Positions 14,071 to 63,599 of a stretch of 64,000 nt of DNA are shown here, one piece after another. Every line of letters begins with the position of its first letter. Position 1 is the stretch's first letter. The notes under the pieces were generated by a model, which saw only the letters and a list, made by a program, of their open reading frames with translations, was not told where the DNA came from and ran no database searches. A program made the position numbers and the translations under genes. Source of the stretch: Schizochytrium sp. TIO01 (lineage: Eukaryota > Protista > Bigyra: Labyrinthulomycetes); assembly GCA_004764695.1 (NCBI GenBank), contig SMSO01000019.1, positions 1 through 64,000 on the forward strand, in the 5' to 3' direction.

Positions 14071-16759
14071 TTATTCCAATTTAAAATTTGCGCCAACAAT
14101 ATCTGGTGTTAGCAAAGGTGATAATAAGTCTTTCAGAACGAGTCGAAGATTTCTATCCTGAGTTCTTGCATTCCAGTACTCACGCAGACGTTCTGCGCGG
14201 AGCAACTGCCACGCCTCACGAACCTGCTCAAATGAATCAGCGAAATGTAGATCTTGCCCAAGTCTTCTTGAACAGGTTCTCACATGAGCATGACAAGCAT
14301 CTGCATCCTGAGAACTATAGCCAAGACACCAAGCGCAGAAGTGATGACCACAAGCACGATTAATACACTCTACAGCACAGCAATCCTCGAAATCGTCCAC
14401 ATAAGCGTTACAATTCGGACAACATGTGCTCAAGATCTTCTCTTGAATATGAAGTAAATGCCGCTGTGCGTCACTGTTTTGTTCATCTGTACGTAAAACT
14501 TGTGCTATGCGCCTTTGAATCTCTTTCTCCGCCCAAACTGCTGCTTCGTTTTCTGCCTTCATCTTCGCAATCAACAAAAGATGATTCAAAGCTGTTGGTG
14601 CAAGACGGGTAATTTCTTGACCTGATATCCTTCCACTACATTCAGGTTTCATGCATGCCATCGTCCCATCAGCATCTACTATTACGTTAGCAAGTGGCCG
14701 TGCCGCCTTTTCTACTGCAAGTTCGATACAGCCTCTGCAAAGGAAGTCCCCCTCCTCGCAGCTCGTGCCCTCGGAAAGAAGATGCTCCTCCATGCATACT
14801 AGACATATCTTGACAGGGATCTGAGGAGCTCCAAAAGCTTCATGTTGGAGTGCTTGACGCGCGGTTGGACGTTGACCAGGGTCTGTTGCTGTAAGAGCAT
14901 CGATAAGTTTCTGCATTGCAGCGGTTCGCTCAGTAGGATACAGCTCCTTTAAGCTTATGCCTACAGAGTACATGTCCATCGCTGTTTCAAACCTATCTAC
15001 AGGCCCATTCTGCAACTCGGGGGCAACGTACCGTGGCGTTGCCTGAAGTGACGTGTAAGTTGCAGTGTAGTCTGCATTCTTGATGCCGTCAAAGTCGCCG
15101 ATCAATGGTGTCCCGTTGCTTGTGAGAAAAATGTTTTCTGGTTTGATGTCACAATGCACAATGCCGTGGGTATGTAAATCCGCCACACCGATAAGCAGGC
15201 CAACAGCAAGTCGATCACGCGCTGCTTTGCCTTCGTTAGGATGACTCTCAATCCACTTGGCAAGGTCACCTTGCTCGTAAAAAGGCATGACGATACAGCC
15301 ACGCGGTACTCCATGTGCCAGATCAACAAAAGCACCATTGATACGTATCACGTGCTGAGACACCACTTTGCCCAGATTGGCAACTTGTCTGTAGAAGGTT
15401 TTGGATTGACTTGAATGTCCAAGCTGAAACTCTTTGAGAACCATAGTTTTACCATCTCCATCAAACACTTTCTGGACTCTCTTGCCAACTCTGGAAGCAA
15501 GGGGCTCGCCGAGAGGCTTGAAGTCCGCGACTGTGACATTCGTCAACCAAAGGTCAGAACATGCTACTTCAAAGACACCCTCTGCACTTACGTGAAGCCT
15601 TTCCAGCCAGGCGCTATCTTGCAGTAACTCTGGATAATGCTTCTGTGCATGTTGCAGAGTTTCAGCAAGCTTATGACGAAAAGCTTTGCTAAGCTCGATA
15701 GGGTTGCCTTCAGAAAGAACGAGCTTTTGTTTCTTGATACGATTTCGAAAATATTCTTGATCTTTCTCATCCAAGTCCTCTGCTTCGAGTACTTCTCTAG
15801 ATCTCTTTAAACTCTCTGTCGCTTTTCTCGAATTGCCAAGTTTTTGGTATAATGCTTCCACATCTGAGACAGAAGGTTCTTTCAAACCCAGTACTGCATA
15901 GTCATATAGTTCGAAGAGCTCTTTTGGTGTGCACTTGCTCGCATCATTCAACGCAGAGCTTTCAGAGTATCCTTCAAATCGAGCAAATGTTGAACTTATC
16001 GCGCAAAGTATTTTGGACAAGTGGGCACGAAGCGTATCTCCTTGTAGCGCTTCAATCTCTTCTTGAAAAGCACGTTCAAGTTCAGACAACTCAGGCTCTA
16101 GCTCCGTGGCCTGCTCAGGTGTCTTCAGTGCAACCAATAATCCATCACCAAGCTCTAGCTCAGTCAGACGCCCGATGACACGTTTTACAGCTTCTTGGCT
16201 TCGTTCGCCAATGTCGTTTGCTCGGGGTTCTCCACTCCTTTTGTACCCTTCCACGAATTTGACAGCCTGAACAGCAAGTTCTTGGCAATATATGAAGTCA
16301 TTTGTGCTTGTCTCTTCATCGACTGGTGCAAGGTTGATCTTTAGATCGTTTACCAAACTTTCGACTCTCAATTTGAATTCTCGCACTGCACTCTCATCAC
16401 TTTCGCAAAAGTTGCCGCGAACCCATGGGTGCACAACCTGCAAAAGTGAATGCAGGTGCCTCCGTTCGGCGTTTCGCTTTTCGATGAGGCTGGGCAAGCC
16501 ATTTGCAGAGCTTGCACGAATCTGGTCTTGTAGCGCGTCAAGACACTGTTTGGAGTTCTTGATGTCAGCGAAAACCTGTCGCAACTTCACTTGGCCAAAG
16601 TAGCCCTGGATCGCCGGTTGAACAAATTCCTCAAGCAAGGCAATCCCAGTCTGCAGCGAGTTTCCTCTGACCCCGCCTTGGTCCGCGCGCAAGTCCGAGA
16701 CTTTCTTGGCAAGCTGCACCACATCAGCGAAACTCACGCTCGCTCCATCCGGCCGTTCT
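14071..16759 (-). CDS. Terminal exon of gene A: helical region, Ser/Thr-type kinase domain, RING1, Rcat/IBR-like domain
   Basis: MVLK, HCDIKPEN, DFDG, YVAPE, DMYSVG, RPTA kinase motifs; CLVC..C...CRGC..CMKPEC RING; CPNC..DCCAVEC....CGHHFCAWC. Confidence 0.9.
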
Positions 16760-19700
16760 CTGAGGCGAACAAGAAGACGTAAGCAAACGAATAAAATAAT
16801 GTTGAAGCAGCAACAAAAGCAGAAGCAAAAGTTAGGATCCCCTATATTTCAATAACACAATTCGAATAATTACACGATCCCAAACAAAGACTGACCGCAC
16901 GAACTTACCCAGATCCAGCCGAACCACGAGGCTCCGTAGGAAGCCCGGCGCCATCAACGCCATCTTGCTCGTTTTGGGGCCCTGCAGAAGGCTCTCTTTC
17001 TGCCACCTCTAGGGAAACACAGGACTCGGTAATGTCCTCTCCAGGAGAACACACCTTCTCGAACAATTCTTTAGGGGTCAAAGAACTCCAATCATAGAAA
17101 CTGCGGCGTTTTGTAAACGAATGAACGAAAGAAAGATAATGAAAGAGCTTGTTAGAAAAGCGATGAACGCATCTAGAGACGCCCTCGCAAGTCCACGGAG
17201 ACATGGAGAGAACAATAGAAGGCAAGGCTCTGTGCAAGCTGAGGACAGCAGCAGAGGGAACGGAACTTACATGATTCGAACAGAAGGACATGCTTTATGC
17301 AGAGACTTTGCGACGGCCTTTGCGCCCTCATCGCCAATGTTGTTGCTATGAAGACTGTGAGTATAAATGAATAAGTTTGTTTTGTTCATTCGTTGTCAGG
17401 AAAGACAGCTCCAGTCAGTTGATCCTGTTTTGTTTTCTTTTTCCTCACAATAAAAAGCAACTGCTGCTGCCTATCAAATTATATAGATTTCCTTTTGCAC
17501 TTCCTTCTTCTCTTTGTAAATAAGAAAAGACTTCTTTGCCTTTCTAAAGTACACAACTACGTAAACTACGCAGGTGGTGTACCAGCAGTGCTTTCGATTT
17601 GATTCCTTTCCCCTACTACAAACAAACACCAAGCACTCAAAAGAAAGAAAGAAAAAGCTTGGTCGTGCCTATTACGATAGCTTTCCCTCGTGGATGACTC
17701 CACAAACGTACTTTAAAGTTTGAAGGTTCTTGCATCCCTCGAGTGCCTTTGCGACGGCCTTTGCGCCCTCATCGCCAATCTTGTTCTTCTGAAGACTGTG
17801 AGTATAAATGAATAAGTTTGTTTTGTTCATTCGTTGTCAGGAAAGACAGGTCCAGTCAGTTGATCCTGTTTTGTTTTCTTTTTCCTCACAAGAAAAGGCA
17901 ATCACCTCTTCTTCTGCTGCTGCTGCTGCCTATCAAATTATATACATTTCCTTCTTCTCTTTGTAAAAAAGAGAAGACTTCTTTGCCTTTCTAAAGTACA
18001 CAACTACGTAAACTACGTAGGTAGTGTACCAGCAGTGCTTTCGTTTTGATTCCTTTTCCCTACTACAAACACCACTAAAAGAAAGAAAGAAAGAAAGAAA
18101 GAAAGAGGTTGGTCCTGCCTATTACGATAGCTTTCCCTCGTGGATGATTCCACAAACGTACTCTAAAGTTTGAAGGTTCTTGCATCCCTCGAGTGCCTTT
18201 GCGACGGCATTTGCGCCCTCCTCGCCAATCCTGTTGTTCTGAAGACTGTGAGTATAAATGAATAAGTTTGTTTTGTTCATTCGTTGTCAGGAAAGACAGG
18301 TCCAGTCAGTTGATCCTGTTTTGTTTTCTTTTTCCTCACAATAAAAAGCAATCACTTCTTCTTCTGCTGCTGCTGCCTATCAAATTATATACATTTTCTT
18401 TTGCACTTCCTTCTTCTCTTTGTAAATAAGAAAAGACTTCTTTGCCTTTCTAAAGTACCCAACTACGTAAACTACTTAGGTAGTGTACCAGCAGTACTAC
18501 AAACACCAAGCACTCAAAAGAAAGAAAGAAAAAGCTTGGTCCTGCCTATTACGATAGCTTTCCCTCGTGGATGATTCCATAAACGTACTCTAAAGTTTGA
18601 AGGTTCTTGCATCCCTCGAGTGCCTTTGCGACGGCCTTTGCGCTCTCCGAGCCAATCTTGTTGCTACGAAGACTGTGAGTATAAATGAATAAGTTTGTTT
18701 TGTTCATTCGTTGTCAGGAAAGACAGCTCCAGTCAGTTGATCCTGTTTTGTTTTCTTTTTCCTCACAAGAAAAGGCAATCACCTCTTCTTCTGCTGCTGC
18801 TGCTGCCTATCAAATTATATACATTTCCTTCTTCTCTTTGTAAAAAAGAGAAGACTTCTTTGCCTTTCTGAAGTACCCAACTACGTAAACTACGTAGGTA
18901 GTGTACCAGCAGTGCTTTCGATTTGATTCCTTTCCCCTACTACAAACACCAAGCACTCAAAAGAAAGAAAGAAAGAGCTTGGTCGTGCCTTTTACGATAG
19001 TTTTTCCTCGTGGATGATTCCACAAACGTACTTTAAAGTTTGAAGGTTCTTGCATCCCTCGAGTGCCTTTGCGACGGCCTTTGCGCCCTCATCGCCAATC
19101 TTGTTCTGCCAAAGACTGTGAGTATAAATGAATAAGTTTGTTTTGTTCATTCGTTGTCAGGAAAGACAGGTCCAGTCAGTTGATCCTCTTTTGTTTTATT
19201 TTTCCTCATAAAAAGCAATCACCTCTTCTTCTTCTGCTGCTGCCTATCAAATTATATAGATTTCCTTCTTCTCTTTGTAAATAAGAAAAGACTTCTTTGC
19301 CTTTCTGAAGTACCCAACTACGTAAACTACGTAGGTAGTGTACCAGCAGTGCTTTCGTTTTGATTCCTTTCCCCTACTACAACCACCAACCGCTAAAAAG
19401 AAAGAAAGAAAAAGCTTGGTCGTGCCTATTACGATAGCTTTCCCTCGTGGATGATTCCACAAACGTACCACAAAGTTTGAAGGTTCTTGCATCCCTCGAG
19501 TGCCTTTGCGACGGCCTTTGCGCCCTCATCGCCAATGTTGTTGCTATGAAGACTGTGAGTATAAATGAATAAGTTTGTTTTGTTCATTCGTTGTCAGGAA
19601 AGACAGCTCCAGTCAGTTGATCTTGTTTTGTTTTATTTTTCCTCACAAGAAAAAGCAATCACCTCTTCTTCTGCTGCTGCTGCCTATCAAATTATATAGA

Positions 19701-21557
19701 TTTCCTTTTGTCCTTTCTTCTTCTCTTTGTAAAAAAGAAAAGACTTCTTTGCCTTTCTAAAGTACACAACTACGTAAACTACGCAGGTGGTGTACCAGCA
19801 GTGCTTTCGATTTGATTCCTTTCCCCTACTACAAACACCAAGCACTCAAAAGAAAGAAAGAAAAAGCTTGGTCGTGCCTATTGCGATAGCTTTCCCTCGT
19901 GGATGATTCCACAAACGTACTTCAGCTGAGTCAGGTTCTTGCATCCCTCGAGTGCCTTTGCGACGGCCTTTGCGCCCTCATCGCCAATCTTGTTGCTACG
20001 AAGACTGTGAGTATAAATGAATAAGTTTGTTTTGTTCATTCGTTGTCAGGAAAGACAGCTCCAGTCAGTTGATCCTGTTTTGTTTTCTTTTTCCTTACAA
20101 TAAAAAGCAATCACCTCTTCTTCGGCTGCTGCCTATCAAATTATATAGATTTCCTTTTGCCCTTCCGTCTTCTCTTGTAAAAAAGAAAAGACTTCTTTGC
20201 CTTTCTAAAGTACACAACTACGTAAATTACGTAGGTAGTGTACCAGCAGTGCTTTCGATTTGATTCCTTTCCCCTACTACAAACAAACACCAAGCACTCA
20301 AAAGAAAGAAAGAAAAAGCTTGGTCGTGCCTATTGCGATAGCTTTCCCTCGTGGATGATTCCACAAACGTACTCTAAAGTTTGAAGGTTCTTGCATCCCT
20401 CGAGTGCCTTTGCGATGGCCTTTGCGCCCTCCGAGCCAATGTTGTTGTTCTCAAGACTGTGAGTATAAATGAATAAGTTTGTTTTGTTCATTCGTTGTCA
20501 GGAAAGACAGGTCCAGTCAGTTGATCCTGTTTTGTTCTCTTTTTCCTTACAAGAAAAGGCAATCACTTCTTCTTCTGCTGCTGCTGCCTATCAAATTATA
20601 TACATTTCCTTTTGCCTTTCCTTCTTCTCTTTGTAAAAAAGAAAAGACTTCTTTGCCTTTCTGAAGTACCCAACTACGTAAGCTACTTAGGTAGTGTACC
20701 AGCAGTGCTTTCGTTTTGATTCCTTTCCCCTACTACAAACAAACACCAAGCACTCAAAAGAAAGAAAGAAAGAGCTTGGTCGTGCCTTTTACGATAGTTT
20801 TCCCTCGTGGATGATTCCACAAACGTACTCTAAAGTTTGAAGGTTCTTGCATCCCTCGAGTGCCTTTGCGATGGCCTTTGCGCCCTCCGAGCCAATGTTG
20901 TTGTTCTCAAGACTGTGAGTATAAATGAATAAGTTTGTTTTGTTCATTCGTTGTCAGGAAAGACAGGTCCAGTCAGTTGATCCTGTTTTGTTTTCTTTTT
21001 CCTCACAATAAAAAGCAACTGCTGCTGCCTATCAAATTATATAGATTTCCTTTTGCACTTCCTTCTTCTCTTTGTAAATAAGAAAAGACTTCTTTGCCTT
21101 TCTGAAGTACCCCACTACGTAAACTATGTAGGTATTGTACCAGCAGTGCTTTCGTTTTGATTCCTTTTCCCTACTACAAACACCACTAAAAGAAAGTAAG
21201 AAAGCAAAAGCTTGCTCCTGCCTATTACGATAGCTTTCCCTCGTGGATGATTCCACAAACGTACTCTAAAGTTTGAAGGTTCTCGCATCCCTCGAGTGCC
21301 TCTGCGACGGCCTTTGCGCCCTCATCGCCAATCTTGTTATAATAAAGACTGTGTTTGTTTGTTTGTTGGTGAACAAGTGAGAGTAAGTATATGCCATTTC
21401 CAACTTCTTCATTAGTGCACAAAACTATTCTTCTTACTACTACAAGACATCGACGACGCGATGCCTCCTTCTTCTGTCTCCTCCTTTCCCCATCGTGCAC
21501 TTACTTTATCTCCGTGGTGGCTTTTGTGATGTCCTCAATACTCTTTGCCGTAGTCAT
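14071..21557 (-). CDS. Gene A: spliced LRR(10)-helical-atypical protein kinase-RING1/Rcat (RBR-like E3) protein, ~1257 aa, 13 exons
   Basis: Exons (minus): 21505-21557 (MTTAKSIEDITKATTEI); 84-nt LRR exons 21265-21348, 20829-20912, 20373-20456, 19921-20004, 19469-19552, 19032-19115, 18589-18672, 18162-18245, 17712-17795; cap exon 17271-17354; linker 16909-17100; terminal 14071-16759. All introns GT-AG and phase 2; joined length 3774 nt with no internal stop. Confidence 0.85.
17271..21360 (-). repeat. Tandem exon-intron array A, 10 LRR exons, period 427-456 bp
   Basis: Near-identical units with acceptor ACTCACAG, donor GTACGT and internal (CAG)n and (CTTT)n microsatellites. Confidence 0.95.
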
Positions 21558-22821: not shown

Positions 22822-22940
22822 AACATTCAACACCGGGGCTTCGCATGCAGTCCCCTATCATACTACTGACCCGGCCCTACGCGACTTTACTTCTCAGTGC
22901 GAATGAGATGAGGTGTTACCCGCGTGGTATGATCGAATGT
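22822..22940 (-). rRNA. 5S: 5S rRNA
   Basis: Reverse complement ACATTCGATCATACC...AGTAGTATGATAGGGGACTGCATGCGAAGCCCCGGTGTTGAATGTT, ~119 nt, 5'/3' helix I complementarity, oligo-T terminator, TATA-like element ~25-35 nt upstream. Confidence 0.92.
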
Positions 22941-34860: not shown

Positions 34861-35159
34861 ATTTCCCTTAGGATAGCTATAACTCGTGTAGAGTTTCATC
34901 AGGTAAAGCGAATGATTAGAGGCATTGGGGACGAAATGTCCTCGACCTATTCTCAAACTTTAAATGGGTGAGAACATGCGGTTGCTTGAGTGAACTGCGT
35001 GATTGAATCTGAGTTATTAGTGGGGCCATCTCTGGTAAGCAGAGCTGGCGATGCGGGATGATCCGAACGCACAGTTAAAGTGCCAGAATGTTCGCTCATG
35101 AGATCCCACAAAAGGTGTTGGTTCATCTAGACAGCAGGACGGTGGCCATGGAAGTCGGA

Positions 35160-35195
<36 letters not shown>

Positions 35196-36084
35196 TGGAT
35201 TAGCCCTGAAAATGGATGGCGCTTCAGCGATCTACTTATACTGTGCCATCTTGAATGTTTATATTATTTCAGGATGAGTAGGAGGGCGTGGGGGTTATGT
35301 GTTGAAGCGTTTGGTGTGAACCTGCGTGGAACGGCCTCTAGTGCAGATCTTGGTGGTAGTAGCAAGTATACAAGAGAGATCCTTGTAGACTGAAGTGGGG
35401 AAAGGTTTCGCGTGAACAGCAATTGGACGCGAGTGAGTCGGTCCTAAGCATGGCCTGAGATGGTGGAATGGATGATTGTTTTGTTTACAGATCAATCCGC
35501 GTGCGAAAGGGAATTGCGTTAATATTCGCAAACCAGAGGTTAGTGTTTAATGCGGTAACGCTAGCGCTGTTTGGAGACGTTGGCGAGCATCCCGGGAAGA
35601 GTTCTCTTTTCTTTTTAATTCTTTCTTTAATTAATCACCCCGGAAGTCCTTTGCGGAGCGAGGGGGCGATTGAAGAAGCAGAGCAGCCCAGTTTTGGGGT
35701 TGTCCGGTGCATGTTCGACGGCCCGTGAAAATCCAAAGGGCGGCATCATTTTGCCTCTGGCCGTACTGATAACCGCAACAGGTCTCCAAGATGAAAAGTC
35801 TCTAGTCAATAGAAGAATATAGATAAGGGAAGTCGGCAAAATAGATTCGTAACTTTGGGATAAGAATTGGCTCTGAGGGTGTGGTTGTTTGGCGGTTGGG
35901 GTGTGTTTGTGTGGGACGGCCTACATGTGTTGAGCAATCGATGCGTGGTCGGGCTGACCTGTCTTTTACATTCTAATCATTAACCAGGCAACGCTTAAAC
36001 ACCGACTCAGAACTGGAGCGATCAAGGGGAATCCGACTGTTTAATTAAAACAAAGCATTGCGATGGTCGGAAACGATGTTGACG

Positions 36085-36117
<33 letters not shown>

Positions 36118-36135
36118 TCGTGAAGTAATTCAAAA

Positions 36136-36200
<65 letters not shown>

Positions 36201-36201
36201 C

Positions 36202-36235
<34 letters not shown>

Positions 36236-36247
36236 ACTGTCCCTATT

Positions 36248-36288
<41 letters not shown>

Positions 36289-36297
36289 GAATCAGCG

Positions 36298-36332
<35 letters not shown>

Positions 36333-36700
36333 TGACATTGTGAAATGTCATGTGAGGTGTAGAATAGGCGGGAGCTACTTGTAGCAACCTTGAAATACCG
36401 CCACTCACATCGACGTTTTACTTATATCGTCACAGTGTGACTTGAATGTTGATAAAGCATTCAAGTTCTGGTACATAAGTTCTTGGAACAATCACCGCGA
36501 TAGAAATTGTCAGGTGGGGAGTTTGGCTGGGGCGGCACATCTGTTAGAAGAGAACACAGGTGTCCTAAGGAGAGCTCCGTGAGAACAGAAATCTCACTTA
36601 GCGCAAAAGGGTAAAAGCTCTCTTGATTTTGATTTTCAGTGTGAATACAAACTGTGAAAGCATGGCCTATCGATCCTTTAGTGTTTTAGAATTTCAAGCT

Positions 36701-36743
<43 letters not shown>

Positions 36744-36766
36744 AGCCAAGCGTTCATAGCGACGTT

Positions 36767-36800
<34 letters not shown>

Positions 36801-36845
36801 CTGCGCTTGCAGAAGGGCGCAATGGTCGGATTGTTCACCCGTTAA

Positions 36846-36901
<56 letters not shown>

Positions 36902-37281
36902 ATGAAGTTGTTGTCGTACCAGTAGTTCAGGTTAGTACGAGAGGAACCTTTGGACCGCATCATTGGTAACGCGGTTGTCTGAAAAGTCAATGCCGCAAAG
37001 CTATCATGCGTTCGTTCAGGGCTGAACGCCTCTAAGTCCGAAACGATGCTGAAGGCGATGATATTACATGCTTGATTAGTTACTACGAGTATCTATACAG
37101 TAATTTTTGTAAACCGATTGAAACCAGTGCTGTCAAAATCAGCGCTTTCTCTCATCACAATTTCAACGAATCAAGCAAGAGATCCTTTGTAGACGACTTA
37201 GCTTGGACGGGGTACTGTAAGCATGAGAGTAGGCCTTGCCCTACGATCTGCTGAGGTTTGGCCTTCGTTCCGTTGATCTGT
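33926..37281 (+). rRNA. 28S: 28S rRNA
   Basis: acctgctgaatttaagcatat, gaggaaaagaaacc, cccgtcttgaaacacgg, sarcin-ricin loop agtacgagaggaac; ends approximate. Confidence 0.97.
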
Positions 37282-39177: not shown

Positions 39178-39251
39178 AATCTCCGGCGGGACTTGAACCC
39201 ACGATCTCCTGATTCGTAGTCAGGCACCTTATCCAACTTGGCCACGGAGAC
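39178..39251 (-). tRNA. trnR: tRNA-Arg(ACG)
   Basis: Reverse complement GTCTCCG TGGCCAAGTTGGATAAGGT G CCTGA-CTACGAA-TCAGG AGATC GTGGG-TTCAAGT-CCCGC CGGAGAT. Confidence 0.9.
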
Positions 39252-40771: not shown

Positions 40772-40964
40772 TGTATTGCAGAGTAGCCTGTGCTGTGAAG
40801 CGTGGAGAGGTAGTCTGACAAGGATGACGAACTCAGGAGAAAGAGAGAGAGGATGATATATGAGTTATCGGGGTTTCAGGTCTGTATACAGGCAGGGTAA
40901 ATGTGTGGATAGGAGAGCTTGGTTAGGTTAGGTTAGGTTAGACAGTAGCTGTATATTACTTCAA
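40772..40964 (-). repeat. Second copy of the 1404-1634 repeat, containing a short (TTAGG)n telomere-like tract at ~40919-40941
   Basis: Reverse-complement match to 1404-1634; ttggttaggttaggttaggttag. Confidence 0.75.
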
Positions 40965-41079
40965 TAATTTGTAAACGTCGGAATTTACTGTGTGAGATCT
41001 TCCAGCCTCGGTAACTTCATCACACTTGCCATAATAATTTAACTCCTTGTAGATATTTGAAACATTTCTTTACCACTTA

Positions 41080-43368: not shown

Positions 43369-43373
43369 NNNNN
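43369..43373. other. Assembly gap (5 N)
   Basis: nnnnn in the sequence. Confidence 1.
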
Positions 43374-43504
43374 TCCTGTAAATGAAAACAAAGAAATGTT
43401 AAAATTATAATTTTTAATTAAAATATATTTATTAAAATAAAAGGGAATAAACTGAATTTTAGAAAATGAAAGTAATAAAAAACTTAACATTTCTTTACAG
43501 CCAA

Positions 43505-47226: not shown

Positions 47227-47345
47227 AACATTCAACACCGGGGCTTCGCATGCAGTCCCCTATCATACTACTGACCCGGCCCTACGCGACTTTACTTCTC
47301 AGTGCGAATGAGATGAGGTGTTACCCGCGTGGTATGATCGAATGT
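47227..47345 (-). rRNA. 5S: 5S rRNA
   Basis: Same sequence as 22822-22940 with different flanks; oligo-T terminator and upstream TATAAA. Confidence 0.92.
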
Positions 47346-50529: not shown

Positions 50530-53218
50530 TTATTCCAATCTGAAGTTTGCGCCAACAATATCTGGTGTTAGCAAAGGCGACAATAACTCTTTCAGAACGA
50601 GTCGAAGATTTCTATCCTGAATTTGTGCATTCCAGTACTCACGCAGACGTTCAGCGCGGAGCAACTGCCACGCCTCACGAACCTGCTCAAAAGAATCAGC
50701 AAAAAATGGATCTTCCCCAAGTCTTCTTGAACAGGTTCTCACATGATCATGACAAGCATCTTCATCATGAGAACTGTAGCCAAGACACCAAGCGCAGAAG
50801 TGATGACCACAAGTCTCATTACCACACTCTACAGCACAGCAACCGTCAAAATCGTGTACATATGCCTTACAGTTCGGACAACTCGTGCTCAAGATCTTCT
50901 CTTGAATATGGAGTAAATGAAGCCGTGCGTCGCGATTCTGTTCATCAGCACGTAAAACTTGTGCTATGCGCCTTTGGATCTCCTTCTCCGCCCAAACTGC
51001 TGCTTCATTTTCTGCCTTCATCTTCGCAATCAACAATAGGTGATTCAAAGCAGTTGGTGCAAGACGGGTGATTTCTTGACCTGATATCCTTCCACCACAT
51101 TCAGGTTTCATGCATGCCATCGTTCCATCAGCATCCACTCTTACGTTAGCAAGTGGCCGTGCCGCCGCTTCTACTGAAGATTCGATACAGTCTCTGCAAA
51201 GGAAGTCTCCCTCCTCGCAGCTCGTGCCCTCGGAAAGCAGATGCTCCTCCATACATACTAGACATATCTTGAGAGGGATCTTAGGAGCTCCAAAAGCTTC
51301 ATGTTGGAGGGCTTGGTGAGCGGTTGGACGCTGGCCAGGGTCTGTTGCTGTAAGAGCATCGATAAGTTTCTGCATTGCAGCGGTTCGCTCAGTAGGATAC
51401 AGCTCCTTTAAGCTGATGCCCACAGAGTACATATCCATCGCTGTTTCAAACCTATCTACAGGCCCATTCTGCAGCTCGGGGCAAATGTACCGTGGCGTTG
51501 CCTGGAGTGATGTGTAAGTTGCAGTGTAGTCCGCAACCTTGATGCCGTCAAAGTCGCCGATCAATGGTGTCCCGTTGCTTGTGAGAAAAATGTTTTCTGG
51601 TTTGATGTCACAATGCACAATGCCGTGGGTATGCAAATCCGCCACACCGATAAGCAGGCCCATAGCAAGTCGGTCGCGCGCTGCTTTGCCTTCGTTAGGG
51701 TGACTCTCAATCCACTTGGCAAGGTCACCTTGCTCGTAGAAAGGCATGACAATACAACCACGCGGTTCTCCATTAGAGGTATCCACAAAAGCGCCAGTGA
51801 TACGTATCACGTGCTGAGACACTACGTTTCCCATATTTGCAGCTTGCCTGTAGAATATTTTGTGTTGGCTCGAATGGCCGAGTTGAAATTGTTTCAAAAC
51901 CATAGTTTTACCAGCGTTGTCAAGAACCTTTTGTACTCTCTTGCCACCTCTGGAAGCAAGGGGCTCGCCGACAGGCTTGAAGTCCGCGACTGTGACATTC
52001 GTCAACCAAAGGTCAGAACATGCTACTTCAAAAACACCCTCTGCACTTACATGAAGCCTTTCCAGCCAGGCTCTATCTTGCAGCAACTCTGGATAATGTT
52101 CCTGCGCGTGTTGCAGAGTCTCAGCAAGCTTATGACGAAAAGCTTTGCTAAGGTTGATAGGGTTGCCTTGAGAGAGAATGAGCTCTTGTTTCGTGATTCG
52201 ATTTCTAAAATATGCTCGCTCTTCCTCATCCAAGTCCTCAGCTACTAGTTCCGCTTCGGCACTTTTTAATCTTTCTGTTGCTGTCCTCGCCTTGTCAAGT
52301 TTCTGGTATAATGCCTCAACATCTAAGAAATTTGGTTCTTTCAAACCCAATACTGCATAGTCATACAGACTAGAGAGCTCTTTTGGTGTGTAATTGCTCG
52401 CGTCATTCAACGCAGCACTTTCAGAGTATCCTTCAAATCGAGCAAAGGTTGAACTTATCGCGCAAAGTATTTCGCACAATTGGGTACGAAGTGTATCTCC
52501 TTGTAGAACATCAATCTCTTCCTTGAGAGCACTCTCAAGTTCAGACAACTCGGGTTCTAGCTCCATGGCCTGCTCAGGTGTCCTCAGGGCAACCGATAAT
52601 CCATCACCAAGTCCTAGCTCAGACAATCGAGAGATGACGCGCTTTACAGCTTGTTGGCTTCGTTCACCAATGTTGTTGGGATGACCTTCTCCACTCCTCT
52701 TGTACCCTTCCACGCATTGGACAGCCTGAATAGCGAGTTCGTGGCAGTGTTTGAAGTCATCTGTGCTGGTCTCTTCATCGACTGGTGCAAGGTTGATCTT
52801 TAGATCGTTTACCAAACTTTTGACTCTCACTTTGAATTCTCGCATTGCACTCTCATCACTTTCGCAAAGGTTGGCGCGAACCCATGGGTACACGACCTGC
52901 AAAAGTGAATGCAGGTGTCTCCGTTCGGTGTTCCGCTTTTGGATGAGGCTGGGCAAGCCATTTGTAGAGCTTGCACGAATCTGGTCTTGTAGAGCGTCAA
53001 GACTCTCTTTGGAGGTCTTGATGTCAGCGAAAACCTGTCGCAACTTCACTTGGCCAAAGTAGCCCTGAATCGCCGGTCGAACGAATTCCTCAAGCAGGGC
53101 AATCCCAGTCTGCAGGGAGTTTCCTCTGACCCCACCTCGGTCCGCGCGCAAGTCCGAGACTTTCTTGGCAAGCTGCACCACATCAGCGAAACTCACGCTC
53201 GCTCCATCCGGCCGTTCT
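50530..53218 (-). CDS. Terminal exon of gene B: helical region, kinase, RING1, Rcat/IBR-like domain
   Basis: MVLK, HCDIKPEN, DFDG, YICPE, DMYSVG; CLVC..CRDC..CMKPEC; CPNC..DGCCAVEC....CGHHFCAWC. Same 2689-nt length as in gene A. Confidence 0.9.
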
Positions 53219-56200
53219 CTGAGGCGAACAAGAAGACGTAAGCAAACGAGCAAAATGGTGTTGAACCAGTAATAAAGGCAAAAGCAAAAGTTAGGATACC
53301 CTCTATCTCAACAACACAATTCGTGGAATGAATAATTACACGATCCCAAACAAAGACTGACCGCATGAACTTACCCAGATCCACCCAAAGTAGCAGGCCC
53401 GGCGCCCTCAACGCGATCTTGCTCGTTCTTGGGCTCTGCAGAAGGCTCGCTTTCTGCAGCCTCTATGGAAGCATGGGAATCGAGCTCTGACGAGAAATCT
53501 GCAATGTCCTCTCCAGGAGAACACACCCTGTCGAACAATTCTTTAGGACTTCCAGAAAAATTGTCATAGCTGCATTTGTAAACGAATGAATGAAAGAAAG
53601 ATCATGAAAGAGCTTGTTAGAAAAACGATGAACGCATCTAATGACGGCCTCGGAAGTCCATATGGAGAGATGGAGAGAACCAGCGAAGGCAAGGCTCTGC
53701 GCAAGCTGGGGATAGCAGCAGAGGGAACGGAACTTACCAGATTTGAACAGAAGGACATGCTTTGTGCAGAGACTTTGCGACGGCCTTTGCGCCCTCATCG
53801 CCAATGTTGTTGTTATTAAGACTGTGAGTAGTATAAATGAATAAGTTTGTTTTGTTCACTCGTTGTCAGGAAAGACAGCTCCAGTCAGTTGATCCTGTTT
53901 TGTTTTGTTTTTCCTCGCAATAAAAAGCAATCACCTCTTCTTCTTCTGCTGCTGCTGCCTATCAAATTATATAGATTTCCTTCTTCTCTTTGTAAAAAAG
54001 AAAAGACTTCTTTGCTTTTCTTTGCGTACCCAACTACGTAAACTACTTAGGTAGTGTACCAGCAGTACTACAAACACCAAGCATTAAGAAGAAAGAAAGA
54101 AAAAGCTTGGTCCTGCCTATTACGATAGCTTTCCCTCGTGGATGATTCCACAAACGTACCCAAGTTGAGACAGGTTCTTGCATCCCTCCAGTGCCTTTGC
54201 GACGGCCTTTGCGCCCTCCGAGCCAATGTTGTTCTCAGAAAGACTGTGAGTAGTATAAATGAATAAGTTTGTTTTGTTCATTCGTTGTCAGGAAAGACAG
54301 CTCCAGTCAGTTGATCTTGTTCTGTTTTGTTTTTACTCACAATAAAAAGCAATCAGCTCTTCTTCATCTTCTTCTGCTGCTGCTGCTGCCTATCAAATTA
54401 TATAGATTTCCTTCTTCTCTTTGTAAAATAGAAAAGACTTCTTTGCCTTTCTTTGCGTACCCAACTACGTAAACTACTTAGGTAGTGTACCAGCAGAACT
54501 ACAAACACCAAGCACTCAAAAGAAAGAAAGAAGAAGCTTGGTCCTGACTATTACGATAGCTTTCCCTCGTGGATGATTCAACAAACGTACATCAGATAAG
54601 TCAGGTTCTTGCATCCCTCGAGTACCTTTGCGACGGCCTTTGCGCCCTCCGAGCCAATGTTGTTGTTGTTAAGACTGTGAGTAGTATAAATGAATAAGTT
54701 TGTTTTGTTCATTCGTTGTCAGGAAAGACAGCTCCAGTCAGTTGATCATGTTTTGTTTTGTTTTTCCTCATAATAAAAAGCAATCACCTCTTCTTCTTCT
54801 GCTGCTGCTGCCTATCAAATTATATAGATTTCCTTCTTCTCTTTGTAAAAAAGAAAATACTTCTTTGCCTTTCTTTGCGTACCCAACTACGTAAACTACT
54901 TAGGTAGTGTACCAGCAGTACTACAAACACCAAGCATTAAGAAGAAAGAAAGAAAAAGCTTGGTCCTGCCTATTACGATAGCTTTCCCTCGTGGATGATT
55001 CCACAAACGTACCCAAGTTGAGACAGGTTCTTGCATCCCTCGAGTGCCTTTGCGACGGCCTTTGCGCCCTCATCGCCAATGTTGTTGTTATTAAGACTGT
55101 GAGTAGTATAAATGAATAAGTTTGTTTTGTTCATTCGTTGTCAGGAAAGACAGCTCCAGTCAGTTGATCCTGTTTTGTTTTGTTTTTCCTCACAATAAAA
55201 AGCAATCACCTCTTCTTCTTCTGCTGCTGCTGCCTATCAAATTATATAGATTTCCTTCTTCTCTTTGTAAAAAAGAAAAGACTTCACTGCCTTTCTTTGC
55301 GTACCCAACTACGTAAACTACTTAGGTAGTGTACCAGCAGTACTACAAACACCAAGCACTAAAAAGAAAGAAAGAAAAAGCTTGGTCCTGACTATTACGA
55401 TAGCTTTCCCTCGTGGATGATTCCACAAACGTACTGTACTCGTTCAAGGTTCTTGCATCCCTCGAGTGCCTTTGCGACGGCCTTTGCGCCCTCATCGCCA
55501 ATGTTGTTGTTGTTAAGACTGTGAGTAGTATAAATGAATAAGTTTGTTTTGTTCATTCGTTGTCAGGAAAGACAGCTCCAGTCAGTTGATCCTGTTTTGT
55601 TTTGTTTTTCCTCACAATAAAAAGCAATCAGCTCTTCTTCATCTTCTGCTGCTGCTGCTGCCTATCAAATTATATAGATTTCCTTCTTCATTTTGTAAAA
55701 TAGAAAAGCCTTCTTTGCCTTTCTTTGCGTACCCAACTACGTAAAGTACTTAGGTAGTGTACCAGCAGAACTACAAACACCAAGCACTCAAAAGAAAGAA
55801 AGAAAAAGCTTGGTCCTGCCTATTACGATAGCTTTCCCTCGTGGATAATTCCACAAACGTACATCAGATAAGTCAGGTTCTTGCATCCCTCGAGTGCCTT
55901 TGCGACGGCCTTTGCGCCCTCCGAGCCAATGTTGTTGTTATTAAGACTGTGAGTAGTATAAATGAATAAGTTTGTTTTGTTCATTCGTTGTCAGGAAAGA
56001 CAGCTCCAGTCAGTTGATCCTGTTTTGTTTTGTTTTTCCTCACAATAAAAAGCAATCACCTCTTCTTCTTCTGCTGCTGCTGCCTATCAAATTATATAGA
56101 TTTCCTTCTTCTCTTTGTAAAAAAGAAAAGACTTCTTTGCCTTTCTTTGCGTACCCAACTACGTAAACTACTTAGGTAGTGTACCAGCAGAACTACAAAC

Positions 56201-59200
56201 ACCAAGCACTAAAAAGAAAGAAAGAAGAAGCTTGGTCCTGACTATTACGATAGCTTTCCCTCGTGGATGATTCCACAAACGTACCCAAGTTGAGACAGGT
56301 TCTTGCATCCCTCGAGTGCCTTTGCGACGGCCTTTGCGCCCTCATCGCCAATATTGTTGTTATTAAGACTGTGAGTATAAATGAATAAGTTTGTTTTGTT
56401 CATTCGTTGTTGTCAGGAAAGACAGGTCCAGTCAGTTGATCCTGTTTTGTTTTGTTTTTTCTCACAATAAAAAGCAATCAGCTCTTCTTCATCTTCTTCT
56501 GCTGCTGCTGCTGCCTATCAAATTATATAGATTTCCTTCTTCTCTTTGTAAAATAGAAAAGACTTCTTTGCCTTTCTTTGCGTACCCAACTACGTAAATT
56601 ACTTATGTAGTGTACCAGCAGTACTACAAACACCAAGCACTCAAAAGAAAGAAAGAAAAAGCTTGGTCCTGCCTATTACGATAGCTTTCCCTCGTGGATG
56701 ATTCCACAAACGTACTCTAAAGTTTGAAGGTTCTTGCATCCCTCGAGTGCCTTTGCGACGGCCTTTGCGCCCTCCGAGCCAATGTTGTTCTCAGAAAGAC
56801 TGTGAGTAGTATAAATGAATAAGTTTGTTTTGTTCATTCGTTGTCAGGAAAGACAGCTCCAGTCAGTTGATCTTGTTCTGTTTTGTTTTTACTCACAATA
56901 AAAAGCAATCAGCTCTTCTTCATCTTCTTCTGCTGCTGCTGCTGCCTATCAAATTATATAGATTGCTTTCTTCTCTTTGTAAAAAGGAAAAGACTTCTTT
57001 GCCTTTCTTTGCGTACCCAACTACGTAAACTACTTAGGTAGTATACCAGCAGTACTACAAACACCAAGCACTCAAAAGAAAGAAAGAAAAAGCTTGGTCC
57101 TGACTATTACGATAGCTTTCCCTCGTGGATGATTCCACAAACGTACGTCAATTGTTGAAGGTTCTTGCATCCCTCGAGTGCCTTTGCGACGGCCTTTGCG
57201 CCCTCATCGCCAATGTTGTTGTTGTCAAGACTGTGAGTGGTATAAATGAATAAGTTTGTTTTGTTCATTCGTTGTCAGGAAAGACAGCTCCAGTCAGTTG
57301 ATCCTGTTTTGCTTTGTTTTTCCTCACAATAAAAAGCAATCAGCTCTTCTTCATCTTCTGCTGCTGCTGCTGCCTATCAAATTATATAGATTTCCTTCTC
57401 TTTGTAAAAAAGAAAAGACTCCTTTGCCTTTCTTTGCGTACCCAACTACGTAAACTACTTATGTAGTGTACCAGCAGCACTACAAACACCAAGCACTCAA
57501 AAGAAAGAAAGAAAAAGCTTGGTCCTGACTATTACGATAGCTTTCCCTCGTGGATAACTCCACAAACGTACATCAGATAAGTCAGGTTCTTGCATCCCTC
57601 GAGTGTCTTTGCGACGGCCTTTGCGCCCTCATCGCCAATGTTGTTGCTACGAAGACTGTGAGTTTAAATGAATAAGTTTGTTTTGTTCATTCGTTGTCAG
57701 GAAAGACAGGTCCAGTCAGTTGATCTTGTTCTGTTTTGTTTTTACTCACAATAAAAAGCAATCACCTCTTCTTCTTCTGCTGCTTGTGCCTATCAAATTA
57801 TATAGATTTCCTTCTTCTCTTTGTAAAAAAGAAAAGACTTCTTTGGCTTTCTTTGCGTACCCAACTACATAAACTACTTAGGTAGTGTACCAGCAGCACT
57901 ACAAAACACCAAGCACTCAAAAGAAAGAAAGAAAAAGCTTGGTCCTGCCTATTACGATAGCTTTCCCTCGTGGATAACTCCACAAACGTACATCAGATAA
58001 GTCAGGTTCTTGCATCCCTCGAGTGCCTTTGCGACGGCCTTTGCGCCCACATCGCCAATGTTGTTATACTGAAGACTGTAAGTAGTATAAATGAATAAGT
58101 TTGTTTTGTTCATTTGTCGTTAGGAAAGACAGGTCCAGTCAGTTGATCCTGTTTTGTTTTGTTTTTCCTCATAATAAGAAGCAATCAGCTCTTCGTCTTC
58201 TGCTGCTGCTGCTGCCTATCAAATTAAATAGATTTCCTTCTTCTCTTTGTAAAAAAGAAAAGACTTCTTTGCCTTTCTTTGCGTACCCAACTACGTAAAC
58301 TACTTAGGTAGTGTACCAGCAGAACTACAAACACCAAGCACTCAAAAGAAAGAAAGAAAAAGCTTGGTCCTGCCTATACGATAGCTTTCCCTCGTGGATG
58401 ATTCCACAAACGTACATCAGATAAGTCAGGTTCTTGCATCCCTCGAGTGCCTTTGCGACGGCCTTTGCGCCCTCCGAGCCAATGTTGTTGCGAGAAAGAC
58501 TGTGAGTATGAATGAATAAGTTTGTTTTGTTCATTCGTTGTCAGGAAAGACAGGTCCAGTCAGTTGATCCTGTTTTGTTTTGTTTTTCCTCACAATAAAA
58601 AGCAATCAGCTCTTCTGCTTCTGCTGCTGCTGCTGCTGCCTATCAAATTATATAGATTTCCTTCTTCTCTTTGTAAAAAAGAAAAGACTTCTTTGCCTTT
58701 CTTTGCGTACCCAACTACGTAAACTACTTAGGTAGTGTACCAGCAGTACTACAAACACCAAGCACTAGAAAGAAAGAAAGAAAGAAAAAGCTTGGTCCTG
58801 ACTATTACGATAGCTTTCCCTCGTGGATAACTCCACAAACGTACATCACATAGGTCAGGTTCTTGCATCCCTCGAGTGCCTTTGCGACGGCCTTTGCGCC
58901 CTCATCGCCAATGTTGTTTTGAGAAAGACTGTGAGTATAAATGAATAAGTTTGTTTTGTTCATTCGTTGTCAGGAAAGACAGGTCCAGTCAGTTGATCCT
59001 GTTTTGTTTTGTTTTTCCTCACAATAAAAAGCAATCAGCTCTTCTTCATCTTCTGCTGCTGCTGCTACCTATCAAATTATATAGATTTCCTTCTTCTCTT
59101 TGTAAAAAAGAAAAGACTTCTTTGCCTTTCTTTGCGTACCCAACTACATAAACTACTTAGGTAGTGTACCAGCAGTACTACAAACACCAAGCATTAAGAA

Positions 59201-59625
59201 GAAAGAAAGAAAAAGCTTGGTCCTGCCTATTACGATAGCTTTCCCTCGTGGATGATTCCACAAACGTACGACAAAGTTTGAAGGTTCTTGCATCCCTCGA
59301 GTGCCTTTGCGACGGCCTTTGCGCCCTCCGAGCCAATGTTGTTGCTGTTAAGACTGTGAGTAGTAATGAATAAGTTTGTTTTGTTCATTCGTTGTCAGGA
59401 AAGACAGGTCCAGTCAGTTGATCCTGTTCTGTTATGTTTTCCCTCACAATAAAAAGCAATCAGCTCTTCTTCATCTTCTGCTGCTGCTGCTGCTGCCTTT
59501 CAAATTATATAGATTTCCTTCTTTTCTCTTTGTAAAAAAGAAAAGACTTCTTTGCCTTTCTTTGCGTACCCAACTACGTAAACTACTTAGGTAGTGTACC
59601 AGCAGTACTACAAACACCAAGCACT

Positions 59626-59656
<31 letters not shown>

Positions 59657-59917
59657 AAAAGCTTGGTCCTGACTATTACGATAGCTTTCCCTCGTGGATG
59701 ATTCCACAAACGTACCCAAGTTGAGACAGGTTCTTGCATCCCTCGAGTGCCTTTGCGACGGCCTTTGCGCCCTCATCGCCAATGTTGTTGTTGTTGTCAA
59801 GACTGAGTATAAATGAATAAGTTTGTTTTGTTCATTCGTTGTCAGGAAAGACAGGTCCAGTCAGTTGATCTTGTTCTGTTTTGTTTTTCCTCACAATAAA
59901 AAGCAATCAGCTCTTCT

Positions 59918-59953
<36 letters not shown>

Positions 59954-60512
59954 TATCAAATTATATAGATTTCCTTCTTCTCTTTGTAAAAAAGAAAAGA
60001 CTTCTTTGCCTTTCTTTGCGTACCCAACTACGTAAAGTACTTAGGTAGTGTACCAGCAGAACTACAAACACCAAGCACTAAAAAGAAAGAAAGAAAAAGC
60101 TTGGTCCTGCCTATTACGATAGCTTTCCCTCGTGGATGATTCCACAAACGTACGACAAAGTTTGAAGGTTCTTGCATCCCTCGAGTGCCTTTGCGACGGC
60201 CTTTGCGCCCTCCGAGCCAATGTTGTTGTTGTCAAGACTGTGAGTGGTATAAATGAATAAGTTTGTTTTGTTCATTCGTTGTCAGGAAAGACAGGTCCAG
60301 TCAGTTGATCTTGTTCTGTTTTGTTTTCCCTCACAATAAAAAGCAATCAGCTCTTCTTCATCTTCTTCTGCTGCTGCTGCTGCCTATCAAATTATATAGA
60401 TTTCTTTCTTTTCTCTTTGTAAAAAAGAAAAGACTTCTTTGCCTTTCTTTGCGTACCCAACTACGTAAACTACTTAGGTAGTGTACCAGCAGTACTACAA
60501 ACACCAAGCACT

Positions 60513-60551
<39 letters not shown>

Positions 60552-62223
60552 AAAAGCTTGGTCCTGACTATTACGATAGCTTTCCCTCGTGGATGATTCC
60601 ACAAACGTACGACAAAGTTTGAAGGTTCTTGCATCCCTCGAGTGCCTTTGCGACGGCCTTTGCGCCCTCATCGCCAATGTTGTTCTCAGAAAGACTGTGA
60701 GTAGTATAAATGAATAAGTTTGTTTTGTTCATTCGTTGTCAGGAAAGACAGGTCCAGTCAGTTGATCCTGTTTTGTTTTGTTTTTCCTCACAATAAAAAG
60801 CAATCAGCTCTTCTTCATCTTCTGCTGCTGCTGCTGCTACCTATCAAATTATATAGATTTCCTTCTTCTCTTTGTAAAAAAGAAAAGACTTCTTTGCCTT
60901 TCTTTGCGTACCCAACTACGTAAACTACTTAGGTAGTGTACCAGCAGTACTACAAACACCAAGCACTAGAAAGAAAGAAAGAAAGAAAAAGCTTGGTCCT
61001 GCCTATTACGATAGCTTTCCCTCGTGGATGATTCCACAAACGTACTCTAAAGTTTGAAGGTTCTTGCATCCCTCGAGTGCCTTTGCGACGGCCTTTGCGC
61101 CCTCATCGCCAATGTTGTTGTTGTCAAGACTGTGAGTAGTATAAATGAATAAGTTTGTTTTGTTCATTCGTTGTCAGGAAAGACAGGTCCAGTCAGTTGA
61201 TCTTGTTCTGTTTTGTTTTTCCTCACAATAAAAAGCAATCAGCTCTTCTTCATCTTCTTCTGCTGCTGCTGCTGCCTATCAAATTATATAGATTTCCTTC
61301 TTTTCTCTTTGTAAAAAAGAAAAGACTTCTTTGCCTTTCTTTGCGTACCTAACTACGTAAACTACTTAGGTAGTGTACCAGCAGTACTACAAACACCAAG
61401 CACTAGAAAGAAAGAAAGAAAAAGCTTGGTCCTGACTATTACGATAGCTTTCCCTCGTGGATGATTCCACAAACGTACGACAAAGTTTGAAGGTTCTTGC
61501 ATCCCTCGAGTGCCTTTGCGACGGCCTTTGCGCCCTCATCGCCAATGTTGTTGTTGTCAAGACTGTGAGTGGTATAAATGAATAAGTTTGTTTTGTTCAT
61601 TCGTTGTCAGGAAAGACAGGTCCAGTCAGTTGATCCTGTTTTGTTTTGTTTTTCCTCACAATAAAAAGCAATCAGCTCTTCTTCATCTTCTGCTGCTGCT
61701 GCTGCTGCCTATCAAATTAAATAGATTTCCTTCTTCTCTTTGTAAAAAAGAAAAGACTTCTTTGCCTTTCTTTGCGTACCGAACTACGTAAACTACTTAG
61801 GTAGTGTACCAGCAGTACTACAAACACCAACTACAAAAAAGAAAGAAAGAGAAAGCTTGGTCCTGACTATTACGATAGCTTTCCCTCGTGGATGATTCCA
61901 CAAACGTACTGTACTCGTTCAAGGTTCTTGCATCCCTCGAGTGCCTTTGCGACGGCCTTTGCGCCCTCATCGCCAATGTTGTTGTTGTCAAGACTGTGTT
62001 TGTTTGTTTGTTTGTGAACAAGTGAGAGTAAGTATATGCCATTTCCAACTTCTTCATTAGTGCCACTACTAGTTCAAAACTATTCTTCTTCTACAAAGCT
62101 GACTACTATAACACATTGACGACGCGATGCCTCATTCTTCTGTCTCGTCCCTTCTGCATCGTGCACTTACCGAATCTCTGTCGTATCTTCTCTGATGTCC
62201 TTAATGCTCTTTGCCACAGTCAT
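50530..62223 (-). CDS. Gene B: spliced LRR(20)-helical-atypical protein kinase-RING1/Rcat (RBR-like E3) protein, ~1539 aa, 23 exons; paralog of gene A
   Basis: Exons (minus): 62171-62223 (MTVAKSIKDIREDTTEI); LRR exons with upper bounds 61993, 61562, 61129, 60694, 60237, 59802 (87 nt), 59353, 58928, 58499, 58075, 57655, 57230, 56799, 56368, 55946, 55518, 55096, 54674, 54243; cap 53738-53821; linker 53375-53569; terminal 50530-53218. All GT-AG and phase 2; 4620 nt with no internal stop. Confidence 0.85.
53738..62000 (-). repeat. Tandem exon-intron array B, 20 LRR exons, period 420-457 bp
   Basis: Same unit family as array A with array-specific intron variants. Confidence 0.95.
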
Positions 62224-63480: not shown

Positions 63481-63599
63481 AACATTCAACACCGGGGCTT
63501 CGCATGCAGTCCCCTATCATACTACTGACCCGGCCCTACGCGACTTTACTTCTCAGTGCGAATGAGATGAGGTGTTACCCGCGTGGTATGATCGAATGT
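63481..63599 (-). rRNA. 5S: 5S rRNA
   Basis: Same sequence as the other two copies; flanks paralogous to the 22822 copy. Confidence 0.92.

Follow-up and report, generated by a model that had tools for sequence, protein, structure and literature searches.

Gene B and its probable place among recombining repeat arrays

Tandem repeat genes that diversify through recombination have been described in brown algae, Tetrahymena and fungi, and a leucine-rich repeat (LRR) gene of the labyrinthulomycete Schizochytrium sp. TIO01, here named gene B, can be set beside them. The gene lies in a 64,000-nucleotide window (contig SMSO01000019.1 of assembly GCA_004764695.1, positions 1 to 64,000 of the forward strand), and its array of 20 LRR exons (53738..61993 (-)) is a real mosaic, beyond chance, that one tree cannot explain. 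In the brown-algal ROCO LRR-GTPase genes (PMC3341825; PMC11378527; statements on published systems refer here and below to the available portions of the papers), also from stramenopiles, one LRR occupies one phase-2 exon, the concave-face residues are variable, recombination is both intra- and intergenic and an immune role has been proposed. Those genes combine 72-nt exons with ROC-COR and are described as shuffling whole exons, with inverted exons in their introns, whereas gene B combines 84-nt exons of the ribonuclease-inhibitor type (RI-type) with a kinase and a RING/Rcat-like tail, and its breakpoints fall inside exons. No inverted exons were seen in gene B. In brown-algal LRR-kinase loci, exon shuffling was not found according to the same portions (PMC3341825; PMC11378527).

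The LRR genes of Tetrahymena are likewise tandem arrays of fixed-length exons with phase-2 introns and a junction codon, subject to ectopic recombination or conversion; the youngest are subtelomeric, some are fused to a kinase and most are without a transmembrane segment. Their exons measure 90 nt compared to 84 nt in gene B, they are linked to the REP retrotransposon, of which none was seen in the gene B introns, and mostly purifying selection is reported for them, while sub-exon module assortment is not described in the available account. The Podospora het-d/het-e NWD genes (Paoletti et al., PMC1805685) display concerted repeat evolution within and between loci, together with a few hypervariable surface codons; such concerted evolution is also found here in the intron distances and shared modules of gene B and its paralog gene A. 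Their repeats are WD40, whereas those of gene B are exon–intron units without a NACHT/NB-ARC match. Vertebrate RI-type LRR genes (NLRs and ribonuclease inhibitor; Hoss et al., PMC6642158) share the 28-residue repeat, the exon border inside the beta-strand and the frame-preserving modularity; they differ in that the diversity reported for them arises by alternative splicing, and neither homogenised introns nor module shuffling is described in the available text.

The mechanism class is known from brown-algal ROCO genes, Tetrahymena LRR genes and fungal NLR repeats, and gene B is a member of none of these systems, having no ROC-COR, no NACHT and exons of 84 nt. The sub-exon scale, the domain layout and the link to the chromosome-end repeats called LORE-TEARS look new; no match to sub-exon assortment in such arrays or to the gene B domain layout was found in the literature searched. 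A diversity-generating retroelement was rejected, as the variable codons change at non-A positions too and it is entire blocks that recur as alleles. A template copy was not seen; the open reading frame list of the window was inspected by eye only.

Gene B is an intact gene model of 23 exons and 1539 aa, with no internal stops and with GT-AG ends and phase 2 throughout. The first coding exon (62171..62223 (-); predicted ATG at 62223, 17 codons, phase-2 donor) is joined to LRR exons in contigs of relatives (runs X16 and X20). The array follows with a period of ~431 bp, its 19 nearly identical introns (336-373 nt, ~96% identity, GT-AG, phase 2) separating exons of 84 nt in 19 of 20 cases and of 87 nt in unit 6. 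Next come a linker exon (53375..53569 (-); 195 nt, acidic/Ser-rich), whose splice joints were seen in contigs, and a last exon of 2689 nt (50530..53218 (-)), which encodes, after the LRRs, a predicted helical region, a protein kinase (about 51397-51936 (-)), a Cys cluster resembling RING (about 51097-51264 (-)) and a second one resembling Rcat/RING2 (about 50758-50898 (-)). Judged by sequence, the 28-residue repeats classify as RI-type LRRs with a 28-29 residue LxxLxLxxNxI core: all three gene B exons tried matched the Pfam family LRR_6 (E 5e-4 to 1e-3, below the whole-protein cutoff, each exon being part of a repeat), and Protein Data Bank matches include ribonuclease inhibitor (1dfj, E 0.001). 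One array intron contains a GCA/GAA microsatellite (61610-61710), where presumed RNA contigs with long loose ends from X16 and X20 align; these are probably unrelated transcripts sharing the simple repeat.

A mosaic that one tree cannot explain

Variation in the LRR exons is concentrated in three short blocks, located here in exon 1 on the reverse strand. Nucleotide diversity (pi) is 0.51 in the 5' block (codons 2-3; 61984..61989), 0.49 in the GD/GS switch codon (codon 8, GAT or TCG; 61969..61971) and 0.58 in the 12-nt 3' block (codons 24-28; 61910..61921), compared to 0.009 in the nearly invariant 47-nt core (61922..61968) and 0.036 in the introns. Written as 5' block, switch and 3' block, the exons, all on the reverse strand, read DNN-GD-ERV-H in exon 1 (61910..61993, with a unique upstream intron), DNN-GD-QTL-S in exon 2 (61479..61562), DNN-GD-QTL-D in exon 3 (61046..61129), SEN-GD-QTL-S in exon 4 (60611..60694), DNN-GS-QTL-S in exon 5 (60154..60237), DNNN-GD-SQL-G in exon 6 (59716..59802), NSN-GS-QTL-S in exon 7 (59270..59353), SQN-GD-TYV-I in exon 8 (58845..58928), SRN-GS-TYL-I in exon 9 (58416..58499) and QYN-GD-TYL-I in exon 10 (57992..58075). 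The second half continues with RSN-GD-TYL-I in exon 11 (57572..57655), DNN-GD-QQL-T in exon 12 (57147..57230), SEN-GS-QTL-D in exon 13 (56716..56799), NNN-GD-SQL-G in exons 14 (56285..56368) and 17 (55013..55096), NNN-GS-TYL-I in exons 15 (55863..55946) and 18 (54591..54674), NNN-GD-ERV-H in exon 16 (55435..55518) and SEN-GS-SQL-G in exon 19 (54160..54243). In the capping exon 20 (53738..53821), nt 1-49 equal those of unit 17 and nt 50-84 are unique, being common to the capping exon of gene A. The extra Asn codon of the 87-nt exon 6 lies within an AAC run, an in-frame slippage and a further source of variation.

An earlier note on this DNA had described the repeats as a mosaic of independently assorting modules drawn from a finite set, and all seven combinations that it named are present: SEN-GD-QTLS (unit 4), SEN-GS-QTLD (13), SEN-GS-SQLG (19), NNN-GD-ERVH (16), DNN-GD-ERVH (1), NNN-GD-SQLG (14 and 17) and NNN-GS-TYLI (15 and 18). 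No two exons of the array are identical (20/20 differ), and recurring blocks keep identical codons, with GS encoded by TCG in seven of seven units and each 3' block being one identical 12-mer. The recurrence that it described for its blocks does not extend to NSN, SQN, SRN, QYN, RSN and QQL-T, each of which is single in gene B (RSN recurs in gene A), and DNN and NNN do not qualify as distinct multi-base blocks, differing by 1-2 nt only. TYV-I (unit 8) and DNNN (unit 6) stand outside its list. Nor is the set closed: additional modules, in pairings not seen in gene B, turn up in gene A and in relatives' spliced contigs.

The earlier note had also held that multi-base blocks are unlikely to recur by point mutation, and the four-gamete and pairwise homoplasy index (PHI) tests that it proposed on aligned units bear this out. 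Among the 19 internal units, 12 four-gamete quartets with at least 3 nt difference on both sides were counted (10 without unit 6), while none of 36,000 clonal point-mutation simulations, run with no selection, gave even one. PHI was significant in both unit phasings (p = 5e-5); since adjacent block bases inflate this statistic, it was repeated on introns alone and gave p = 0.0003-0.013. The correlation of distances between blocks was -0.08, compared to a minimum of 0.10 in 383 clonal runs conditioned on similar haplotype numbers. A single tree free of homoplasy was not obtained, the best tree found requiring 20 steps against a floor of 15, and therefore about five repeated origins of whole blocks. 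Whole-unit duplication alone was also tried and rejected, with no quartets in 150 runs.

Incompatibility between sites grows with distance, from 0.21 at 1-5 nt to ~0.7 beyond 40 nt, and the raw count in the intron is 131 of 300 pairs. Across the unit there are 12 non-overlapping incompatible intervals (Rm = 12), the first inside the 12 nt separating the 5' block and GD/GS, another between GD/GS and the 3' block, and ten more reaching into or lying within the intron. Exchange had been placed within the exon core and the introns, and incompatible intervals are indeed found in both. To call this exchange frequent is justified only by comparison with mutation and homogenisation. Within a unit, modules behave as freely assorting even where no more than 12 nt separate them, and exchange is therefore finer than whole exons.

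Within units, assortment appears independent: no association between modules was found (p 0.56-0.87), 18 of 19 units have distinct module triples compared to 17.5 expected under free assortment, and the 12 quartets compare to 7.9 expected (5-95%: 3-13). Neither are the 3' block of one unit and the 5' block of the next co-inherited across the intron (p 0.18-0.28). Along the array, independence fails, since identical 5' blocks tend to lie near one another (p = 0.002) and a single intron variant divides the array in two as a gradient (p = 0.0002), both of which neighbour-biased exchange predicts. Similarity decays with array distance for exons (Mantel p 0.025) and not significantly for whole introns (p 0.11). 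A variant at intron column 43 (within 53822-61909) largely alternates between successive units and tracks GS in six of seven GS units (p 0.02 uncorrected), a hint of past two-unit duplications or of short conversion tracts over the 3' block.

The variable codons are 2, 3, 8, 25, 26 and 28, which by established LRR geometry occupy the outward-pointing x sites of LxxLxLxxN and a single site in the loop. They are ~14-16x as diverse as the adjoining introns, with nonsynonymous diversity (pN) of 0.43-0.68 compared to the intron value of 0.036 and synonymous diversity (pS) there likewise high. Because synonymous divergence inside the blocks is high, old alleles fit better than recent point mutation. 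No codon intermediate between GAT and TCG occurs in gene B; the GD/GS alleles are also in gene A, and the GS allele base was found in four of four runs of a second contig comparison. The intron splits the variable strand, one strand drawing its halves from the 3' block of an exon and from the 5' block of the exon that follows, and exchange in the intron would therefore re-pair strand halves, whereas exchange in the exon core would re-pair neighbouring repeats.

Splicing, the predicted receptor and rival explanations

Splicing was assessed in contigs of relatives. Of 24 runs listed, none was recorded as RNA; six were compared, four taken as RNA (from four studies) and two as DNA, with RNA status guessed from the joints. 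The joint 53218>53375, which skips 156 nt with CT..AC ends, was present in all four presumed RNA runs, in two of which summed depth drops to zero inside this intron. Further joints in these contigs link the linker to exon 20, LRR exons to one another and the first exon to LRR exons, while neither of the two DNA runs had any of the 15 joints shown (of 26). Junction pairings read by hand were QTL-S|LHS, TYL-N|LW, QTL-H|LYS and QQL-Y, the first of which is a gene B 3' block joined to a gene A 5' block. Judged by these sequences, the gene family appears to be spliced as modelled, this allele's own splicing aside.

The kinase domain of the last exon is well matched (Pfam E 2.5e-28) and has the motifs VLK, HCDIKPEN and DFD. 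The tail contains two Cys clusters, not the three of RING1-IBR-RING2, and the second aligns weakly with parkin/Ariadne RING2, keeping Cys at the aligned GC position. Pfam searches of the last exon returned kinase families only, with no NACHT/NB-ARC or ROC-COR match, and the other exons are LRR or short; maximum 19-residue hydropathy is 1.22, and neither a transmembrane segment nor a signal-like stretch was found. AlphaFold gave a poor model of the last exon (predicted local distance difference test 52), whose structural matches are generic kinases only; MLKL-like matches were not taken as evidence. Homologue searches gave three relatives of the last exon (51-59% identity) and four generic LRR proteins. 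No longer fused form was found, which is weak evidence, and scans of metagenome and viral contigs for the exon-core pattern gave no matches. Because of its domain architecture and by analogy, the gene B protein is predicted to be a cytoplasmic receptor with a recombined variable binding face.

Taken together, we consider it probable that the LRR units of gene B, which is intact and spliced at the predicted joints in relatives, swap short tracts by homologous recombination in exons and introns, and that the gene encodes what is predicted to be a cytoplasmic receptor with six recombined surface positions per repeat. Because each 84-nt exon holds one 28-residue repeat and every intron is in phase 2, gain, loss or swap of units would preserve the reading frame. 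The homogeneous core and introns would supply homology, and the three short blocks hold old divergent alleles, consistent with the diversities given above. Where units misalign, unequal crossover and gene conversion, favouring neighbours and at times involving paralogs, would keep the scaffold homogeneous and dissolve linkage over as little as 12 nt, while diversifying selection on the binding face may retain several alleles per block. Most tentatively, binding of a ligand, plausibly a viral or other foreign protein, might activate the kinase together with a ubiquitin ligase tail of RING/Rcat type. Persistent mirusviruses occur in Aurantiochytrium (PMC12606086) and are a plausible source of ligands; neither the available portion of that paper nor bioRxiv 10.64898/2026.07.28.741200 mentions LRR or LORE.

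Several observations weigh against this reading. The association tests have low power with 19-20 units, the quartets are non-independent, with ~5 extra events being enough to produce them, and the intron incompatibility fraction taken alone is weaker evidence, as 8 of 900 clonal runs reached it, in each case under extreme rate heterogeneity. A neutral Moran model needed 90-100% sub-unit exchange to approach the data and at that level reached at least 12 quartets in 3-7% of 150 runs per setting, a shortfall for which extra forces are therefore assumed. Genes A (9 units) and C (10 units) have no quartet of their own. The unit order is that of the assembly. The spliced contigs come from relatives or paralogs of 85-88% likeness, with no read of this allele among them; their RNA status is a guess, and run X19 was flagged as probably DNA. 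At several block codons pS is 0.33-0.9, and dN/dS > 1 is thus not established. Matches that would point to a ligase are poor (parkin E 0.034, Ariadne E 0.27, Pfam IBR_2 E 0.58), and the ligand and immune role of the gene B protein are hypothetical.

Recurrent point mutation under strong convergent selection on one duplication tree could account for the DNN, NNN and AAT variants, which lie 1-2 nt apart in an AAC run, and for the slippage in unit 6. We regard it as extremely improbable for the array as a whole and reject it for multi-base blocks, as blocks that differ from one another at as many as 11 of 12 nt reappear with the same synonymous codons and the clonal simulations, selection being absent from the model, never gave such a quartet. 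We consider it hardly probable that the mosaic is a chimera of many paralogous copies created by assembly or polishing. A single unit attracts hundreds to thousands of contigs from each run (in the DNA runs, 320 and 4665), a gap of five Ns interrupts the window at 43369 and the 47-nt core is longer than short k-mers, all of which would favour such joins; yet the 5' block and GD/GS together span 21 nt, within any read, exact repeats of at least 250 nt are absent from an array whose exons all differ, further pairings occur in the spliced contigs of relatives, and positional gradients and an intact frame are unexpected of chimeras.

The same recombination might instead be a neutral by-product of a recombination-prone ribosomal DNA (rDNA) or subtelomeric neighbourhood, the gene encoding a structural or housekeeping protein in which variable positions are merely tolerated. 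Subtelomeric regions are reported to recombine often (bioRxiv 2023.06.15.545109, available portion), matches to RI-type LRRs include flagellar proteins, and pS in the blocks is high. Drift, however, cannot lift codons ~14-16x above intron level while exposed core positions stay invariant, and the missing GAT/TCG intermediate, with both alleles common to gene A and all four runs of the second contig comparison, also speaks against this explanation, which we judge unlikely. A targeted short-tract process, such as conversion confined to exons and templated by spliced RNA or cDNA, would explain why linkage is lost across 12 nt, why the exon 1 5' block is also in internal units despite the unique upstream intron, and why GD/GS is tied to an intron site 105 nt off (6/1/3/9, Fisher p = 0.02 uncorrected) with the intervening 3' block free. 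That p value, though, is one of 150 tests. The introns recombine too, the derived alleles found in the intron at 14 and 16 nt after the donor are confined to TY-type 3' blocks, as DNA tracts predict, adjacent 3' and 5' blocks are not co-inherited across the intron, and joined forms are absent among the joints listed for the DNA runs, which together leave this process quite improbable.

Paralogs and chromosome-end repeats

Gene A (14071..21557 (-)) has the same layout as gene B, with 10 LRR exons and a 1257-aa model, and the last exons of the two, both 2689 nt, share 89.8% DNA identity. The modules RSN, GD, GS and QTL-D are common to both genes. Intron distance is 0.036 within gene B and 0.065 between A and B, with 10 shared polymorphic and 4 fixed columns, while A-B distance at four-fold sites of the last exon is 0.16; that the introns are closer suggests inter-locus exchange or intron constraint. 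In the capping exons, the first half of B20 equals B17 and that of A10 equals A5, a hint only, resting on 2 nt. Downstream of genes A and B, about equally far from each, are related stretches (10624-10980 and 47348-47672 (-)), and the duplicated block therefore reaches several kb past the genes. Gene C (23415..28032 (+)) has 10 LRR exons of 84 nt in a 385-bp unit (9.9 copies) and a 407-aa model without kinase, which is LRR-only with a 105-residue tail lacking a Pfam match. It belongs to another core and intron family than gene B, varies at the 5' block and has more aromatic residues.

The window also contains 5S rRNA genes at 22822..22940 (-), to the left of gene B at 47227..47345 (-) and to its right at 63481..63599 (-), and an 18S-5.8S-28S rRNA cluster (31742..37281 (+)), the 18S of which we take to be Aurantiochytrium-like. 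Just past the 28S gene are three tRNA genes (38164-39251), and 3.6 kb past it are three internal TTAGG telomere-type units (40923-40937). A five-N scaffold gap (43369-43373) follows; the sequence at ~41060-43280 is repeated after it at ~43490-45850 (82-91%), and the join may lie between two chromosome-end copies. A 1173-codon open frame at 5271-8792 (-) carries a HEIGH metalloprotease-like motif, presumably of leishmanolysin type, with no Pfam matches at E 0.01, long His/Asp/Gly/Arg-rich tandem repeats (periods 36, 69 and 81 bp) and a hydrophobic C-terminal stretch.

The 5S/rDNA layout is typical of published chromosome ends, the telomere signal in the window being limited to the three-copy TTAGG run. 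LORE-TEARS of A. limacinum are units of 366-529 bp lacking GenBank similarity, published as repeats perhaps serving chromosome-end maintenance (Collier et al., bioRxiv 2023.06.15.545109). In the available portion of that preprint, Group 0 comprises ~nine copies of a 385-bp unit lying between 5S and 18S, and Group 5, placed between two 5S genes, comprises ~five copies of a 421-bp unit. Gene C matches the first in exact period and location (385 bp x 9.9, also between 5S and 18S), and gene B resembles the second (431 vs ~421 bp, 19 vs ~5 copies, both between two 5S genes), the correspondence being one of unit period and position only, not of sequence. The window differs from the layout in the preprint in that the 28S gene is not followed by an array of Group 1 or 2 and in that the N gap at 43369 separates the rDNA and gene B. 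By period and position, LORE-TEARS of Groups 0 and 5 are likely LRR genes. No coding or LRR reading of LORE-TEARS was found in the literature searched, on which the preprint supplements and journal version may bear. A bolder extension, which we hold to be doubtful, is that the LORE-TEARS at nearly all Aurantiochytrium chromosome ends form a large family of expressed LRR receptor genes, their sub-exon modules recombining fast enough to create new binding specificities within clonal cultures. They would then be an anticipatory combinatorial immune repertoire in a single-celled host of persistent mirusviruses, and exchange would take place on rDNA-flanked chromosome ends.

Sequences described in print as non-coding spacers of chromosome ends are likely protein-coding, diversifying receptor genes, and gene B shows shuffling below the exon level with a frame-safe geometry. 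Since the Ectocarpus proposal (PMC3341825) it has been an open question whether ongoing recombination diversifies the LRR receptors of protists and algae, and somatic recombinants are not reported in brown algae according to the available portion of a 2024 paper (PMC11378527). With near-identical introns, unique module barcodes and a culturable single-celled organism, ongoing receptor diversification would be directly measurable here.

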